Assembly: GCA_965208125.1 (NCBI GenBank)
Contig: OZ242320.1
Span: forward strand, 5,408,001 to 5,472,000
DNA from: Candidatus Latescibacterota bacterium
GTDB lineage: Bacteria; Latescibacterota; UBA2968
Reading direction: 5' to 3'
DNA length: 64,000 nucleotides
Shown here piece by piece: positions 1 to 4,269 of the stretch; position 1 is the first letter of the stretch; each line of letters opens with the position of its first letter. A program made the translations under genes and the position numbers. Below the pieces are notes generated by a model, which was given only the letters and a program-made list of their open reading frames with translations, ran no database searches and was not told the origin of the DNA.

Positions 1-322
1 CCTGCACCATTTCCTCGGCCTCTGGCCCGGTCAGTGACATCGGCTTTTCAATCAGCAGGTGCTTCTTCGCCGCCGCCACCTTGAGCGCATCCGCATAATG
101 CGCCGCCGAATGCGTCGCGATCAAAACCAACTCGATATCCCAACCGAGAAAATCATCGAGATCACCGGTCGCACGCAGCCCCTCGGCAACCGCCTCTTCC
201 CTTCTGGATTCCGTAATATCGCACACCCCCACCACATCGTACAACCCCGTCTCTCGCATCGTTCTCAGATGACCGCCAGCCACCCGTCCAAACCCAATAA
301 TACCCGCCTTGATCTTTTCCAT
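1..322 (-). CDS. Gfo/Idh/MocA family oxidoreductase (N-terminal part; runs off window)
   Basis: Manual translation from ATG at 322: MEKIKAGIIGFGRVAGGHL...VLIATHSAAHYADALKVAAAKKHLLIEKPM. Rossmann GxGxxA plus EKP motif. Confidence 0.85.
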   Translation of the reverse strand, partial: MEKIKAGIIGFGRVAGGHLRTMRETGLYDVVGVCDITESRREEAVAEGLRATGDLDDFLGWDIELVLIATHSAAHYADALKVAAAKKHLLIEKPMSLTGPEAEEMVQ

Positions 323-411
323 TTATTCTTCCTCATCGTCTCCGTATTCTTCACCGCGATAAGCCGCGCGCAACTCAGCGATATTGGTCGCCTTCACAAC
401 GCGCGCATGAA
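303..411. repeat. Direct repeat copy A (3' end of rraA-like gene + start MEKIKAG)
   Basis: 109 bp aligning ungapped to 1534-1642 with 8 mismatches (manual alignment). Confidence 0.95.
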
Positions 412-425
412 CTGTCTCGTTGTAT

Positions 426-1553
426 TCATTCGGTCCCGATCCACGCGGAACCGTAGTCGTTATCAAGCTCGCGATACATGCTGTGAGCATGATCTATGGT
501 GCCTTCGCCGTTTTGAACCGCGTATTCGATTACCATGGACGGGCTGGTCACGCGGAAATACGCGGCGCCCAGGACACCCTGCCGCCCCCACCATCCAAAG
601 TATGTGTCCTCGATCTCGGCCACCACGGTTTTCATTTTTTCAGCATAGTCGTCATTGTTCATGAAACCCAAACGGGCCTCGATCACATCCAGGAGTAACG
701 TTCTCTGCATAGCTGTAAGTTCGCTTCCCTTAATGCCTTCCGGCGCAACTGTTGCACCATACTTTCCTGGCCCCAGCAAGAGGTCGATGGGCTGCTCTGC
801 ACGAACGGCTTGTCCTTTCTGTTCGTCCGTAAGGCTATCCATGAACGCTTGCGCTGCCGCAGTTTCCCTCTGCGTAATGAAGATATCGTCACCGTCAAGG
901 CGCAAGTGCAGCGGTTGGCCGCCAGTCAGCATCGGTGAAAAGGAAACGTTCGGTCCGAATACTGTGGCGTTTAATGCGAGATGGTGCCCGCCGAACTGGA
1001 ACATCCAGGGCTCTGTACTTGACGGTTCACCGAGAAATGCAGCGTAAAAGTACTCACTGCCGTATTTCATGACGCCGAACAGGTCTCCTGAGATCAGTAA
1101 GTCTGCTGCGGCCAGTTGATAAGTGATATTTTTCACACCGTCTTCACTCAAGAGTTCACCAAGGAGCTTATCGAGATTCGCCCGCTGTATTGCAGAGAGA
1201 ACACCGAGCTTTACACCACCACGCGGAACCATACCCTCAGGAAAGTTGGACCAATTTGAACGCTGTGCGTTATCGGTAAACCGATATGTCGCCGCTTGTC
1301 TCTGGTTGTCGTCCAGTGAGTCCAGAAAGAGCCTTGCAGCCGCCACGATGGCCACGGTCTTCTCGTCGGCAGCAGGCAGGTCGTGAGCGTGCTTGAGATT
1401 GATCTCTACTGGTAAAGGAACCGCTCTAAAAAAGATCCGAGCTACAATATCGGGGTGAAAAAACAGATAGACGAAAACTGCGGCAATGACAATCACTGCA
1501 CCGAGAAGGTAGATCAACACGCGTTTCATGGATCCCGCCTTGATCTTTTCCAT
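426..1553 (-). CDS. DUF3500 domain protein with N-terminal membrane anchor
   Basis: Motifs R.NW...P, FGGHHLALNAT, IEY, HAHSMYR..NDYG. The native start is probably MKRVLIY at 1529, with MEKIKAG supplied by the repeat. Confidence 0.8.
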   Translation of the reverse strand: MEKIKAGSMKRVLIYLLGAVIVIAAVFVYLFFHPDIVARIFFRAVPLPVEINLKHAHDLPAADEKTVAIVAAARLFLDSLDDNQRQAATYRFTDNAQRSNWSNFPEGMVPRGGVKLGVLSAIQRANLDKLLGELLSEDGVKNITYQLAAADLLISGDLFGVMKYGSEYFYAAFLGEPSSTEPWMFQFGGHHLALNATVFGPNVSFSPMLTGGQPLHLRLDGDDIFITQRETAAAQAFMDSLTDEQKGQAVRAEQPIDLLLGPGKYGATVAPEGIKGSELTAMQRTLLLDVIEARLGFMNNDDYAEKMKTVVAEIEDTYFGWWGRQGVLGAAYFRVTSPSMVIEYAVQNGEGTIDHAHSMYRELDNDYGSAWIGTE

Positions 1554-1642
1554 TTATTTTTCTTCATCATCTCCGTATTCTTCACCGCGATAAGCCGCGC
1601 GCAACTCGGCGATATTGGTCGCCTTCTTAACGCGCTCTTGAA
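1534..1642. repeat. Direct repeat copy B
   Basis: Matches 303-411 (offset 1231). Confidence 0.95.
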
Positions 1643-2279
1643 GCGCCTCTTCTCCTGCGATCAATTCCTTCACATTCGCCAGCACCTCCGCCATCCGATC
1701 TGCGGGAAACTTAACCGCGCCATTTTCATCCATGTGAATAATCTCACCAGGCGCAACATCCATGCCGCAAATCGACACCGGCACATTCACCGCCTGCACA
1801 GCCTGATCGCCATGGCCCGGCGATATACCCGTCAACAAATACTGAAACTCCATCGGACGGATTTCATCGATATCCCTCGACGGTCCATTTGACACACATC
1901 CCACGCACCCCAGCGCTTTCATCGTCGTCGTCATATTGCCGCCCGCAAGCCCCACCTTACCCGCAATCTCCGGCGGAAACTTCTGCTCCAGCGCCAGTAT
2001 CGTCGGCTTTGGCGACGCATCCAGCGCCTCGGACACATCCATAAACGACAACCGACTAAACCCCGCATCCGGTAACCCAAAAGTACACGTCACAGCATAC
2101 CCGCACCGCGCGCCGAGTTCTGGATACATACACTTAATCGTCTGATCCGTGTACCAATTCTCAACCCACGGATTATAAAGCCCCAAACACAACGGATTAC
2201 TCGGATACGTCGCCACCACATTTGTAATAGACGGGGTATCGAAATTCTCCAACTCCTTCAAAATCTCCTGCTCTGTCAT
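1554..2279 (-). CDS. RraA/HMG-aldolase family protein
   Basis: DTPSITN, GYAVT, G..M....KALG..G.V.NG..RD..E, V.PGEIIH.DENG motifs. Confidence 0.85.
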   Translation of the reverse strand: MTEQEILKELENFDTPSITNVVATYPSNPLCLGLYNPWVENWYTDQTIKCMYPELGARCGYAVTCTFGLPDAGFSRLSFMDVSEALDASPKPTILALEQKFPPEIAGKVGLAGGNMTTTMKALGCVGCVSNGPSRDIDEIRPMEFQYLLTGISPGHGDQAVQAVNVPVSICGMDVAPGEIIHMDENGAVKFPADRMAEVLANVKELIAGEEALQERVKKATNIAELRAAYRGEEYGDDEEK

Positions 2280-2380
2280 GGTAATCTCCTTAAAAGTTGA
2301 TCGCTACTTGTTAGCCTTTTACTCTATTTTTATCGGTGTTTATCTGCGTTCATCTGCGTTCATGCTCGAATTACTCGCCT

Positions 2381-3397
2381 TCATTCTGCGGATTGATCTT
2401 CATCCTTCTCACTTCCCCAACCTGTCACCACATGTTCCTGATCCCAATCCTGGATCAACGGCTCCAGATCATCCCAAAACGCCTCGGGAATTTCAATACT
2501 GCCAGCTTCGGCATTTTGAATCGTCTCCGCTTTGTTTCGCCCCCCGCAAATCGCCGTTGCAATCAACGGATGCCTCGTACACCACAAAGTGCTTGCAGCG
2601 AGGCAGCCACCAGTGGAATGCCATAATCGTCGCAAAGTGCTTTTATCTTCCCAACGCGGGCCAAAACAGCCTGACTAAAATTGCGATTCACATAAGAATG
2701 TCCGGGCAAGGGACCCGTCGCCAATAAACCGCGCTCCAGAGGCGTAGCAAGCGCAATACCCACATTGTGTTTTTCAGCACCGGGAAAAATGAAAGTGTCC
2801 GCCGTGCGATGAAGGAGAAGAACTCAACAAACTCCAGGCATCGGGAACCACCGAAGCATCAAACTCGCCCGTATCAATGTAGGGACCATTCGAATCGGGA
2901 TCATTCGCCGCAATACCGACAAAACGCACCACACCCTCATCCTGCAATTTTCGCAACGCCCCAAGCGCCCCATCTTTTGCCATCACCTGCTGCATGGGAA
3001 AATCCATCGGATCGTGAATATACAATACATCAAACGCATCCAGCCCCAACCGCTCCTGGCTGTCTTCCACCTGCAGCATCACCCCGTCGAAAGAGAAATC
3101 GTATTCATTTCCCGATCTTCCCACCTTTGTCGTCACCGTACACTTTTCAGCCAGATCGGGGCGTTCGCGCAACGCGCGCCCAATAATTTTCTCGCTCACG
3201 GTATTCCCGTAAAGTGGCGCCGTATCGACCAGCGTACATCCCGCCTCAATAGCAGCCACCACATTCTCTACGCCCACATCTTCATCGACACCCGGCAAAA
3301 AATGACCATCTGCCCCCATCACACGAGCGAGAAATGCCGTGCCAAAACTGACGATTGGAACTTCCAACCCCGTTCTGCCCAATATCTTACTCTGCAT
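2381..3397 (-). pseudogene. Aldo/keto reductase, interrupted by two frameshifts
   Basis: The N-terminal ORF has DTAPLYG, TKVG and SQERLGLD...YIHDP. AKR-like sequence continues in a second frame (..RTADTFIFPGAEKHNVGIALATPLERGLL..ASLQ) and then in the first frame again (WCTRHPLIATAICG). Confidence 0.85.
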
Positions 3398-3427
3398 TGC
3401 AAATTTCCTCCTGAAAAAACCCCTCGC

Positions 3428-3456
3428 ATAATAGACGACAGAACCCCGCGTGTCAA
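3428..3456 (-). promoter_or_regulatory. sigma70-like promoter for the AKR/rraA operon
   Basis: TTGACA-N17-TATTAT on the minus strand. Confidence 0.6.
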
Positions 3457-3460
3457 TGCG

Positions 3461-3497
3461 AAAAAATCCCCTGCTCTATGTGGTAAGAGCAGGGGAT
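3461..3497 (-). terminator. Intrinsic terminator after the PhyH gene
   Basis: ATCCCCTGCTCT/AGAGCAGGGGAT stem followed by a T-run on the minus strand. Confidence 0.8.
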
Positions 3498-3522
3498 CGG
3501 AATCAATCGACGAAACAAATCT

Positions 3523-4269
3523 CTAAACCGCCATCGCCTCTTCTTTCAGATGCGTCAGCCCTTCAAACTCGCGCCAGATATCGGCCATAGCATCCGTGCT
3601 ATTTTCTCTCGAGTTGACGTGTCGGGGTCTGAAAATCACGGCATAACGGATATCGGGCGAATGATTTGGTCCTCCATTGTGATACATCTGGTGATGGCAG
3701 ATCACGGCATCGCCCGCTTCGCCCATAAACTGAATCGGACCATGCGGCAAATCAATATCGGGAATCCGGCGATTGGCCTTTGCCGTCTCTACATAATTGG
3801 GATCCTTTTGAAACGCCGCCTCATAAGCGCGATGAGACCCGGGCCAAAAACAGAAATTGCCCATAAATGGTCGCGGAACATCGTGAACCAGAATCACCAC
3901 CAGCAGCGTCATACCGCGACTCAGCAACCCATCCTTCAACTTTCCACCCAAATCCAGATGCCCTCGCGTCAGCGGGCGCTCCTCTGCATCGGGAAAATTG
4001 AGCTTCACATTGCCTCCCTGCGGCGGAATCAACTGCCCCTCTCCCACAACTGACTCGCACAGACCCCAAAGCGGCGATTTATTAAACAAATCTGTAATCA
4101 CCGGCTCATTGCTCAACCCCGGATTTCGCCCCTGTGCCATCACACGATAACGCATATGCCGATTAATAGCCTTGCGCGCCTGATCGGCCATCAACTTTGG
4201 TACAGCACCTCGCACAAGCACATATCCCTCTTCGAAAAACTGCTGCTTTTGAGCTTTGGTCATCTGCAT
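3523..4269 (-). CDS. Phytanoyl-CoA dioxygenase (PhyH) family protein
   Basis: FFEEGY, H-x-D (GHLD), WPGSH, GD..I.H....H.G..N.S...R. Confidence 0.85.
   Translation of the reverse strand: MQMTKAQKQQFFEEGYVLVRGAVPKLMADQARKAINRHMRYRVMAQGRNPGLSNEPVITDLFNKSPLWGLCESVVGEGQLIPPQGGNVKLNFPDAEERPLTRGHLDLGGKLKDGLLSRGMTLLVVILVHDVPRPFMGNFCFWPGSHRAYEAAFQKDPNYVETAKANRRIPDIDLPHGPIQFMGEAGDAVICHHQMYHNGGPNHSPDIRYAVIFRPRHVNSRENSTDAMADIWREFEGLTHLKEEAMAV

Follow-up and report, generated by a model that had tools for sequence, protein, structure and literature searches.

How single genes that carry no mobility gene cross phyla and settle in operons is poorly understood. Templated foreign insertions, with a short flanking duplication and microhomology at each switch, are predicted by FoSTeS/MMBIR, a process known chiefly from rearrangements in eukaryotes and from stress-induced ones in bacteria. 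For Acinetobacter baylyi, double illegitimate recombination was reportedly described by Huelter and Wackernagel in 2008. Insertion with long target duplication (ILTD), the closest described system, was described for restriction-modification (R-M) genes flanked by repeats of 46-423 bp with no other mobile element (PMC2853133; Furuta, Abe and Kobayashi 2010), with an earlier source in Nobusato et al. 2000 (Gene 259:99, as reference 37 in PMC2853133). In PMC2853133, ILTDs were identified by flanking repeats >30 bp aligning to one empty-site copy, an insert <20 kb, the absence of a mobile-element gene and a repeat that is not multi-copy, and the cargo was screened for restriction and modification genes. 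ILTDs have been on record since 2000, chiefly for R-M genes, whose own nucleases confuse the picture, and they still lack an established mechanism. In the SPDIR model, foreign single strands anneal at (extended) microhomologies during replication (bioRxiv 10.1101/2023.11.22.568220), and short-patch illegitimate recombination in A. baylyi was reported by Harms et al. 2016 (as described in bioRxiv 10.1101/2023.11.22.568220).

Here, a DUF3500 gene lying between two copies of a gene junction was analysed in the genome of a Candidatus Latescibacterota bacterium (GCA_965208125.1, G000 below); the window is the stretch of 64,000 nucleotides at positions 5,408,001 to 5,472,000 of contig OZ242320.1, and all coordinates are those of the window. 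The insert is an ILTD, a rare but already described way of gaining genes: it combines a 109-nt repeat present in two copies, an empty site in relatives and an insert of ~1.14 kb with no mobile gene, and its cargo is a PF12006 DUF3500 gene only. It resembles the ILTDs of R-M genes in PMC2853133 in being a short unit without a mobile gene, with long direct repeats that align to a single empty-site copy, are unique in the genome and often overlap gene ends. It differs from them in that the cargo is a metabolic-type enzyme gene and not a restriction or modification gene, so that no cargo nuclease can be invoked, in that the same cargo leaves the footprint in several phyla, and in that both junctions can be placed. 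As in SPDIR, foreign DNA without homology appears to have entered, presumably at a replication fork, via microhomologies at both ends that may be extended and contain mismatches; SPDIR patches are 3 to about 100 bp long and replace the target, whereas 1.1 kb entered here and the target was duplicated, not replaced, and therefore the second joint must lie behind the first.

Structure of the locus

A direct repeat of 109 nt (303-411 and 1534-1642) with 8 mismatches and no gaps was found by blastn against the whole genome (E 1e-40), and the repeat search of the window returned the same pair as 303-418 and 1534-1649 (116 nt, 91%), the copies being spaced 1231 nt from start to start. The description in an earlier note, made from the sequence without database searches, of a 109-bp gene junction repeated with 8 mismatches around a single DUF3500 gene was thereby confirmed, as was its remark that the repeat is far longer than the target-site duplications of insertion sequences. 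Only these two copies are present in the 5.75-Mb genome; no third copy was found by whole-genome blastn, in which the next matches were ≤35 nt long with E ≥ 0.037. On the coding (minus) strand, the repeat comprises the last ~29 codons of an RraA-like gene, its TAA stop and the ATG GAA AAG ATC AAG GCG GG of a Gfo/Idh/MocA oxidoreductase gene.

The RraA-like gene (1554-2279, minus strand; 241 aa; PF03737, E 8.2e-21) is intact, with its last ~29 codons inside the upstream copy of the target duplication (1534-1642), and its orthologues are present in 20/20 other genomes of the genus at 90-100% amino acid identity. The upstream copy also carries the first 20 nt of the oxidoreductase gene, and a remnant of the oxidoreductase start, MEKIKAG, is read there (1533-1553, minus strand). 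The incoming DNA (404-1542, minus strand), ~1.14 kb and thus <20 kb, consists of the open reading frame plus 13 nt ahead of the ATG and 22 nt beyond the stop, and the DUF3500 gene (PF12006) is the only gene in it. The native reading of this gene (426-1529, minus strand) gives 367 aa with an N-terminal membrane helix and starts, like its 367-aa relatives, with the ATG at 1529-1527 (MKRV...); the PF12006 match covers profile positions 3-296 of 297 (E 1.1e-67, 229.2 bits against a curated cut-off of 27.2). The gene is intact, with some constraint acting on its sequence. The downstream copy (303-411) contains a dead RraA tail of 26 codons and a stop (323-403, minus strand), in which amino-acid-changing substitutions accumulate across the five genomes that carry the insert; this tail still provides the native upstream region for the start of the oxidoreductase gene, the 5' part of which (1-322, minus strand) is intact and extends past the window start (330 aa in the genome). 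No promoter-like or terminator-like sites were found between the RraA-like, DUF3500 and oxidoreductase genes.

Composition was compared as the earlier note had suggested. The insert, at 52.8% GC, is not atypical of the genome (51.2 ± 3.8% on average), and in tetranucleotide distance it lies at the 81st percentile, with the neighbouring genes at the 85th and 87th.

Empty and filled sites within the genus

Among the genomes of 21 species of the genus, 16 have an empty site, including the deep-branching G016, G018 and G010, and 5 have a filled site with identical junctions. In 15 of the 16 empty sites, the oxidoreductase ATG follows the RraA stop immediately; in the remaining one (G001), a spacer of ~190 nt lies between them. 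The check for an empty site in relatives, which the earlier note had proposed, thus supports an insertion between copies of the gene junction, and the outcome it had named as contrary, that all relatives carry DUF3500 here, did not occur. The filled genomes are G000, G015 and G020 (a single contig each) and G003 and G007 (multi-contig, 190-280 contigs). An assembly chimera of two strains, the other contrary outcome named, is excluded because these five independent assemblies have the same gene order and the same junctions, and each carries private substitutions.

An open reading frame starting at 1553 (MEKIKAGS+) extends DUF3500 in frame in this genome only. In the four other filled genomes, the remnant is disabled in three ways, by ATG>AAG (G015, G003) and by two different 1-nt deletions (G007, G020), which leave an 8-codon reading frame ending in ATGA, and the DUF3500 gene retains its ATG together with the upstream stretch AAGGCGGGATCC known from other phyla. 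The earlier note was right in reading the fusion of MEKIKAG to DUF3500 as in frame, and its suggestion that the insert thereby captured the translational coupling of the operon was not supported, the fusion being kept in 1/5 filled genomes only. Because it is destroyed in the other four, the fusion is incidental.

Origin of the inserted gene

The DUF3500 gene is foreign, and a search for its relatives gave 614 of them. Metagenome-assembled genomes (MAGs) from five or more further phyla, the majority of sponge origin, hold copies with 78-92% DNA identity, and proteins with 79-96% amino acid identity were found in MAGs labelled Gemmatimonadota, Binatota, Pseudomonadota, Chloroflexota, Thermodesulfobacteriota and other Latescibacterota. 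The phyla are intermixed in the gene tree, and the only other DUF3500 in the 40 relatives searched is one paralogue with 26-31% identity. By blastn against 72 loci, the match at 36 loci outside the genus starts at q841-870 and ends at q1964-2003, with the ATG at q872 and the end of the stop codon at q1975. At these loci, the homologous DNA takes in 2-31 nt ahead of the ATG and 0-28 nt beyond the stop, and in 13 of them the match ends at the identical base, window 404. The rraA/oxidoreductase junction was found by blastn beside the DUF3500 gene at 0/70 loci outside the genus.

The gene occurs with tight ends in about 21 contexts across phyla. The 13 contexts examined all differ, and no shared recombinase was found in them. 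In some Proteobacteria, the DUF3500 gene lies directly downstream of decayed tyrosine-integrase and serine-recombinase genes; such remnants are absent from the window.

Flanking direct repeats of local target DNA, 46-401 nt long, were found at 8/34 DUF3500 loci (6 of the about 21 contexts), compared with 2/69 control positions, both within an LRR repeat gene. In a second context, comparison with empty sites gave a 104-nt duplication of a sulfatase start, the uninterrupted site being present in 9 relatives; in a third, a gene junction of 193-194 nt is duplicated and 9/9 matching relatives are empty. At least three insertions in different lineages were thus checked against empty sites, and both neighbours were preserved each time. 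No flanking repeat was found at the other 26/34 loci, and long target duplication is therefore not the sole route by which this gene arrives.

Junction microhomology

Both joints can be placed in microhomology because the flanks of the cargo are known from about 36 other loci. The reading was made at the RraA/oxidoreductase event only, with the L079 and L098 events set aside. The microhomology is CAAGGCGGG at the left junction and TTCA(T/A)GCG at the right junction. The left one (1534-1542, minus strand) is common to the target (ATC AAG GCG GGT) and to the upstream stretch of the gene elsewhere, for which the consensus before the ATG in other phyla is ..TACAAG(G/A)CGGGATCC ATG; sister-clade copies have A(C/T)AAGGCGGGAT(C/T)C before the ATG, against ATCAAGGCGGGTATT in the target. 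The 9-nt length of the left microhomology presupposes an inferred donor state, and the copy closest by DNA identity (L064, 92%), which reads CAAGACGGAATCC, would leave CAAG and CGG as the left match. The right one, TTCATGCG (404-411, minus strand), lies where the 3' flank in other phyla reads ..GTTCATGCG and then G, and the target reads ..CTTCAAG(A/C)G and then CGCGTT; the other copies have GTTCATGCGG, against CTTCAAGCGCGCG in the target (G009, G008, G003). It contains a mismatch, and its extent varies with the target allele that was hit (AAGCG or AAGAG).

At the start of the downstream copy 8 nt (404-411), and at the end of the upstream copy 9 nt (1534-1542), are also part of the ends that the incoming gene has in other phyla; they are therefore junction microhomology, which leaves a target duplication proper of ~101-109 nt. 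A sponge-metagenome contig has a loose end at 1542 and then the usual upstream leader, and a contig with a loose end at 404 goes on into the L064/L065 context.

Comparison with mobile elements

No transposase, integrase or phage Pfam family was found among the 22 open reading frames within about 15 kb on either side, in agreement with the earlier note, which had seen neither a transposase nor an integrase. No terminal inverted repeats were found: positions 1-4000 contain 5 inverted pairs, none of them at the insert ends. The end points of the insertions vary by event (roughly 13, 30 and 70 nt ahead of the ATG; 22, 110 and 104 nt beyond the stop), and in the search for an att-like core, the duplicated targets of 5 contexts shared only chance 8-9-mers. 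As for an attC site, the incoming DNA extends just 22 nt past the stop, and this stretch folds no better than shuffled sequences (z +1.23).

An insertion sequence or DNA transposon was rejected on the lack of a transposase and inverted repeats, the variable ends and duplications of 46-401 nt. A site-specific integrative element was rejected as well, since there is no integrase nearby, the junction is absent from the copies elsewhere and no core is shared; integrative elements (attL/attR) resemble the locus in their direct repeats that restore the interrupted gene, as in the 3'-end duplication of a target gene, and differ in needing an integrase and an element-borne att core, neither of which is present here. 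Integron cassettes are likewise single promoterless reading frames with very tight ends that are served by an outside promoter, and differ in that there is no attC and no integrase here and that the target was duplicated on insertion; a cassette was rejected for the missing attC and a 22-nt 3' flank that is too short. An attC-like reading of ATCCAAC..GTTCATG was rejected as too short, with a misfit in the second core, and a 3'-end hairpin, CCGAATGAA..TTCATGCGG, was no better than shuffled sequences and is lost where the stop codon changes.

Proposed mechanism of capture

A one-step, microhomology-mediated insertion of the foreign gene with duplication of its target is considered the rather probable origin of the locus. 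A promoterless foreign DUF3500 gene would have been captured once, in one lineage of the genus, in a single illegitimate-recombination event at the junction of the RraA-like stop and the oxidoreductase start. The incoming left end, CAAGGCGGG, would have been joined at oxidoreductase codons 4-7 and the incoming right end, TTCATGCG, ~105 nt further upstream, within the RraA tail. With the second joint upstream of the first, ~101-109 nt of target would come to stand on both sides; the target being duplicated, the RraA gene remains complete on the upstream side, and on the downstream side the oxidoreductase retains its original start with the region ahead of it. The captured gene would be read with the co-directional string of genes from its own ATG, and the 7-codon oxidoreductase remnant before it would be debris. 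As the mechanism, two template switches of a growing DNA strand are tentatively preferred, with the strand leaving the chromosome at CAAGGCGGG, copying the foreign strand and re-annealing ~105 nt behind its exit point.

A staggered break is the closest alternative to the template switches. In it, two nicks ~105 nt apart on opposite strands would have given long 5' overhangs that were filled in, and the foreign fragment would have been attached to the two resulting blunt ends by microhomology-mediated or Ku/LigD end joining. Both would be expected to leave the same footprint here, namely a target duplication with microhomology at both joints and no recombinase; no sequence feature separates them, and the variable duplications of 46-401 nt elsewhere fit a random spacing of nicks; the break needs two suitably spaced nicks and a free double-stranded foreign fragment, and is regarded as the less likely of the two and on the whole unlikely. 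The earlier note had proposed single-crossover integration of a small circle, here one with DUF3500 and one 109-nt junction copy (Campbell type). Although a single crossover at the 109-nt homology would yield exactly two direct copies around the insert, the 0/70 loci outside the genus with this junction mean that a foreign circle would have had no homology for the crossover; the cassette ends overlap the target by 8-9 nt only, and microhomology at both ends would be left unexplained. As an origin, the circle was accordingly given up as improbable. Its excision through the repeats is possible for the later spread inside the genus, where it could form by recombination between the repeats of a filled genome, and the GAAAAATAA/GAAGAATAA allele pattern of G000 is what a crossover close to the right-hand end of the repeat would give; yet the leanings of the G000 flanks, read from few sites, fit a double crossover in the flanks better, the A/G site concerned is variable throughout the genus, and the contigs of 4 runs, which drop rare forms, contain no circle or empty-site joint.

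The other proposal of the earlier note, duplication followed by replacement, needs two events: a 109-nt tandem duplication, and the later arrival of the foreign gene between the copies or in place of DNA there. Slippage often creates tandem duplications, and the end result would look identical, but a tandem duplication of the junction is present in 0/16 empty-site genomes, the insert would have to strike the exact novel joint, the match of the insert-end bases to the target is not predicted by a later blunt landing, and the same architecture recurs at unrelated sites; this order of events is therefore held to be very improbable. A dedicated mobile element served by a recombinase in trans, either a transposase making long duplications or an integrase with the repeats as att sites, ranks equally low. 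The spread of the gene over about 21 contexts with tight ends, the decayed recombinase genes upstream of it in some Proteobacteria and the existence of transposases that make long variable duplications (IS1634 family) speak for it, against the lack of terminal inverted repeats, the variable end points, duplicated targets without a shared core, and the absence of a recombinase within 15 kb here and in the 13 contexts examined; for an integron-type recombinase, the 3' flank of 22 nt is too short for attC and its fold has z +1.2 against shuffled sequences. A merger of two strains in assembly, with the repeat as a chimeric join, is scarcely credible: short-read unitigs of public sponge metagenomes do break inside both repeat copies, but five independent assemblies agree in gene order, junctions and private substitutions, and the gene is intact and under some constraint.

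Beyond one-step insertion at this locus, ILTD may, rather than being peculiar to R-M genes, offer recombinase-free single genes of any kind a general route into chromosomes in dense symbiont communities, a proposal that is advanced with considerable doubt. If it held, the DUF3500 gene would be a natural tracer of this route, the mechanism would be a double template switch, or a crossed annealing of the single strand that comes in, at the replication fork, and duplications, not deletions, would survive because of selection for intact neighbours. Within this proposal, the present event could, with similar reservation, be the first case with known incoming flanks and both joints in microhomology. 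The empty site, the five filled alleles and the about 36 foreign copies together make both joints readable (8-9 nt of microhomology), and as the footprint also recurs elsewhere, the mechanism is testable.

Spread within the genus

The filled allele has spread recently within the genus, probably by homologous recombination in the flanking genes. The insert of G000 is 97.6-98.7% identical to those of the other four filled genomes, against 92.1-92.9% at rpoB loci, and on the rpoB-locus tree the filled state requires at least 3 changes. The two repeat copies differ by 7-9% and the inserts of different species by 1.3-2.4%, so that a faster decay of the dead copy, an import of other alleles by recombination, or both, are needed. 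In G000, the RraA gene and the opening 300 nt of the oxidoreductase gene lean to the filled genomes on few sites, the scan for imported tracts in G000 giving 14 informative sites, of which only 3 are filled-like. The tree of 2.1 kb upstream disagrees with the rpoB-locus tree, contains two very long branches and is read as a sign of recombination only. The two repeat copies of G000 carry different alleles, ..GAAAAATAA, of local type, upstream and ..GAAGAATAA, shared with the other filled genomes, downstream; this polymorphic A/G site in the repeat varies throughout the genus. After the capture, the filled allele passed between species of the genus, most likely via ordinary homologous recombination in the flanks, and a recombination of one repeat copy with the other can remove it cleanly. 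No empty-site joint and no circle joint was found in the Logan contigs of 4 sponge or related runs, from which rare forms are dropped; these contigs break within both repeat copies and are fragmented, since the samples contain several organisms with the DUF3500 gene.

The DUF3500 protein

The AF2 model of the DUF3500 protein (pLDDT 82) was compared with PDB 9x86 by Foldseek (E 2.6e-16), and 9x86_A was matched by hmmsearch with E 6e-32. By its predicted structure and by profile search, the protein is homologous to the solved ApmL/Amc20 'dehydratase' 9x86 in both sequence and fold. This homology and fungal work on 1,2,3,5-tetrahydroxybenzene (bioRxiv 10.1101/2023.06.06.543907) are leads to its activity, with sugar nucleotides and polyhydroxybenzenes as candidate substrates. 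The findings point to a strong demand for this enzyme among sponge symbionts.

Gene order and direct repeat

Every gene in the first 7 kb of the window is carried by the minus strand, and the source genome (G000) is a single contig of 5.75 Mb in which the window occupies positions 5408001-5472000. In coding order, the RraA-like gene (2279-1554, PF03737) is followed by the DUF3500 gene (ORF 1553-426, PF12006, E 1.1e-67), by a short, dead RraA-tail copy as the third element and by the Gfo/Idh/MocA oxidoreductase gene, which starts at 322, continues past the window edge and encodes 330 aa in the genome. The direct repeat was recovered by a repeat search of the window (303-418 against 1534-1649, 116 nt, 91%) and by blastn against the whole G000 genome (109 nt, 8 mismatches, 0 gaps, E 1e-40), and the 109-bp repeats with 8 mismatches bracketing a single DUF3500 gene, as described in the earlier note, were thereby borne out. 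A third copy was not found in the G000 genome, where the other blastn matches were at most 35 nt with E values of at least 0.037. The repeat contains the final ~29 RraA codons, TAA and then ATGGAAAAGATCAAGGCGGG; the live RraA gene ends in the upstream copy (1534-1642) and the live oxidoreductase gene begins in the downstream copy (303-411).

The Pfam search covered 7 ORFs in the first 7 kb of the window and 15 further ORFs, from the 15 kb upstream of the window and from its 7-16 kb part. Oxidoreductases, PhyH, sulfatase, ThuA, DHDPS, a symporter, a TonB-type receptor and DUFs were found around the insert; no transposase, integrase or phage family was found among these 7 and 15 ORFs, in agreement with the earlier claim that the first two are absent. 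Between the three genes, no promoter-like or terminator-like site was found on the minus strand, and the RraA-like, DUF3500 and oxidoreductase genes are likely co-transcribed. Adjoining the RraA-like gene upstream, an aldo/keto reductase gene (2381-3397, minus strand) is split into three ORF pieces in G000, and in each of the 16 close genus genomes compared it is uninterrupted, at 336-396 aa; the split gene is either a pseudogene or a product of indel errors of a long-read assembly.

Empty and filled sites in the genus

Among the 21 species genomes of the genus in the collection, the oxidoreductase ATG directly follows the RraA stop in 15, which supplied the empty site proposed as a check. In the deep-branching member G001 (locus L021), a spacer of ~190 nt separates the two genes without abutting stop and start; its RraA tail is longer. 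The DUF3500 gene occupies the junction in five genomes (G000, G003, G007, G015 and G020). Both junctions are identical base for base across the five and therefore represent one insertion event. The insert is missing from the deep-branching members G016, G018 and G010, so that the empty junction is the older state. An assembly chimera was rejected, because the filled assemblies, three single-contig and two multi-contig, agree on both junctions.

The tree of the 6.7-kb rpoB locus unites G003, G007, G015 and G020 in a clade that has the empty G011 nested within it, and places G000 in another clade with six empty genomes, so that the filled state requires at least three changes. The insert of G000 is 97.6-98.7% identical to those of the other four filled genomes, against 92.1-92.9% for the rpoB loci, and the filled allele has therefore recently crossed species boundaries. 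The RraA gene of G000 is 96.6-97.7% identical to those of filled genomes and 94.5-96.6% to those of empty ones. Informative sites of G000, few in number (11 left, 3 right), change from its own clade to the filled clade inside rraA and revert more than ~300 nt into the oxidoreductase gene, which would thinly fit acquisition of a 2-3-kb tract by homologous recombination. The empty state of G011 is compatible with a loss of the insert through the repeats and also with the filled allele having been replaced by an empty one. As a separate observation, all 21 genus genomes have a second open frame of ~1030-1100 aa at the position that it takes in G000 (5480704-5481705, ~9 kb past the window end); in each of them it weakly matches three segments of the rpoB family model, with best E values of about 1e-27 to 1e-31, which fall far short of the cut-off.

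The MEKIKAG stretch was earlier read as a captured translational coupling, a reading that did not hold. ATG GAA AAG ATC AAG GCG GGA TCC is in frame with the native ATG (1529) in G000 only; in G015 and G003 the remnant ATG is replaced by AAG, and in G007 and G020 one A is lost each, at different places, yielding an 8-codon ORF ending in ATGA over the native start. With three independent disabling changes in four genomes, the oxidoreductase-start remnant is therefore decaying, and the native DUF3500 start with the preceding AAGGCGGGATCC stretch arrived with the gene. The dead downstream RraA tail has been gathering substitutions that alter its amino acids, namely R>C, G>S and D>N, which occur in different genomes. 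Several of the 8 repeat mismatches in G000 lie at sites variable across the genus, the GTG codon of its downstream copy being the allele that is found in the empty G009 and G012; part of the repeat divergence is therefore imported variation and not age.

Foreign origin of the DUF3500 gene

No other DUF3500 gene was found in the 40 relatives searched except one paralogue (26-31% identical). Scanning of one genome per species gave 72 loci with the gene, and 614 relatives were found among predicted proteins. Copies outside the genus reach 90% amino acid identity, in MAGs labelled Gemmatimonadetes, Binatia, Arenicellales, Alphaproteobacteria, Chloroflexi, Thermodesulfobacteriota and other Latescibacterota. 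Many MAGs with the gene carry sponge-study bin names, and the public runs containing the stretch are mostly sponge metagenomes. The protein tree (50 rows) requires 12 changes of phylum label (minimum 7), with a shallow clade of 35 rows mixing five named phyla; MAG labels may be wrong, though many of the records are closed chromosomes.

Beyond the genus, 36 loci contain DNA matching the window (78-92% identity); the match begins 2-31 nt before the ATG and stops no more than 28 nt after the stop codon, at window position 404 in 13 of them. In all 13 loci examined for neighbours, these differ (nitrilases, a type I restriction enzyme, SDR, GNAT, PfkB, Fic, IlvD and an LRR protein among them), and no recombinase is common to these neighbourhoods. 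The DUF3500 gene is foreign to the genus and travels alone. The composition check proposed earlier (codon or tetranucleotide usage) did not mark the insert, whose GC and tetranucleotide make-up are unremarkable against the genome.

L064 (MAG labelled Gemmatimonadetes) and L065 (Latescibacterota chromosome) share 95% identical DNA over ~4 kb downstream of the gene and none upstream of its start, by either larger-block transfer or a mislabelled bin. The Arenicellales chromosome OY762925.1 has two gene copies (L077 and L097), which are 82% identical to one another; homologous DNA of ~4 kb follows each. In several Proteobacteria-type contexts (L068, L082 and L081, some 100-450 nt before the DUF3500 start), a conserved ~70-nt leader of the gene is readable as serine-recombinase codons (..ELHVGLKGTHYLLRKRT..), and a frameshifted tyrosine-integrase C-terminus (HDLRH .. 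RY) is located farther upstream; protein P0055 is annotated as a fusion of a PF00239 N-terminus with DUF3500. Scraps of former landing sites seem to be carried along by the gene.

Junction sequences

The pre-ATG stretch of the gene in other phyla is ..GAATGTACAAG(G/A)CGGGATCC (consensus of 31 loci), and in the sister clade of the genus's copy it is A(C/T)AAGGCGGGAT(C/T)C. As the left-junction target is ATC AAG GCG GGT ATT and the product ATCAAGGCGGGATCC, both partners share at most 9 nt (CAAGGCGGG, window 1534-1542). The post-stop stretch in other phyla is TGAATCCA.C.AGAC.GTTCATGCGG..; with the right-junction target CTTCAAG(A/C)GCGCGTT (C in G009, G008 and the upstream copy of G003) and the product GTTCATGCGCGCGTT, TTCA(T/A)GCG (window 404-411) is shared and the switch lies inside GCG. 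Sponge-metagenome contigs independently depart from the window sequence at 404 and 1542 into contexts known from other phyla. In the target, the right joint lies ~105 nt upstream of the left joint, hence the target duplication.

Recurrence at other loci

Flanks of 1.3-1.5 kb on each side of the gene were compared at 34 loci, together with 69 control positions within the same loci. Flanking direct repeats of 46-401 nt were found at 8 of the 34 loci, representing 6 of about 21 contexts (as grouped here from shared flanks), and at 2 of the 69 controls, both within an LRR repeat gene. The L079 group has a 104-nt repeat of the sulfatase gene start region and first ~33 codons, L098 a 193-nt repeat (98% identical) of a gene junction and the next gene's first ~37 codons, L083 a 401-nt repeat of the mutS 3' end with stops throughout the upstream copy, L084 an 89-nt repeat, and L100 repeats of 46 and 30 nt. 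For L098, all nine fully matching relatives are empty and align to both insert sides with a 194-nt overlap. In the L079 context, 9 relatives have a single copy of the 104 nt, and in these the sulfatase gene comes directly after the upstream gene; 3 more lack the insert and have another upstream side, and 4 genomes are filled. In two genomes of this context, L166 (G053) and L168 (G060), the upstream repeat copy is 5.4 and 3.7 kb off, respectively, against 1.4 kb, which suggests additional DNA within the duplicated site.

No core common to the duplicated segments was found, and the end points of the incoming DNA vary between insertion events. Where the insertion was checked against empty sites (three contexts), and also at L083, as judged from the duplicated mutS end alone, both neighbouring genes are whole after duplication; a duplication leaving both neighbours whole is the outcome that selection would retain.

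Classification and mechanism

Insertion with long target duplication, for which Nobusato et al. 2000 is reportedly the founding paper, has a footprint that agrees with the one seen here. According to PMC2853133, repeats of 46-423 bp flank such inserts, an empty-site genome has one copy that aligns to them, no other mobile element is present, no mechanism is established, and the cases are restriction-modification genes of Helicobacter, Haemophilus, Neisseria, Campylobacter, Burkholderia and others. Unlike those, the DUF3500 cargo comes without a nuclease; new as well are one cargo recurring across lineages and two joints readable as microhomology.

The DUF3500 gene would have been inserted by a replication-associated double template switch. 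A near rival is a filled-in staggered break to which foreign DNA was joined at microhomology, likewise in one step. Foreign single strands can be incorporated at mismatch-containing microhomologies by SPDIR (a short-patch form of double illegitimate recombination), as stated in bioRxiv 10.1101/2023.11.22.568220. The earlier note was confirmed in its observation and right only in part in its interpretation: the single-crossover (Campbell-type) circle that it proposed cannot be the origin of the insert, because the rraA/oxidoreductase junction is absent from the gene's surroundings at all 70 loci compared outside the genus, but it is a possible vehicle for spread within the genus. The DUF3500 insertion is a clean, well-documented example of a type of gene gain that is known but unexplained, and the insertions together form a natural data set of several events from which the mechanism might be worked out.

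The DUF3500 protein

The spread of the gene suggests strong selection. The protein has a membrane helix at its N-terminus, and its conserved columns include GGHH 181-184, E336, H348 and H350. With the AlphaFold2 model (mean pLDDT 82), the sole significant PDB match was 9x86, 'dehydratase ApmL in amipurimycin biosynthesis' (Foldseek E 2.6e-16, TM 0.82 on target), which is also a sequence homologue (E 6e-32).
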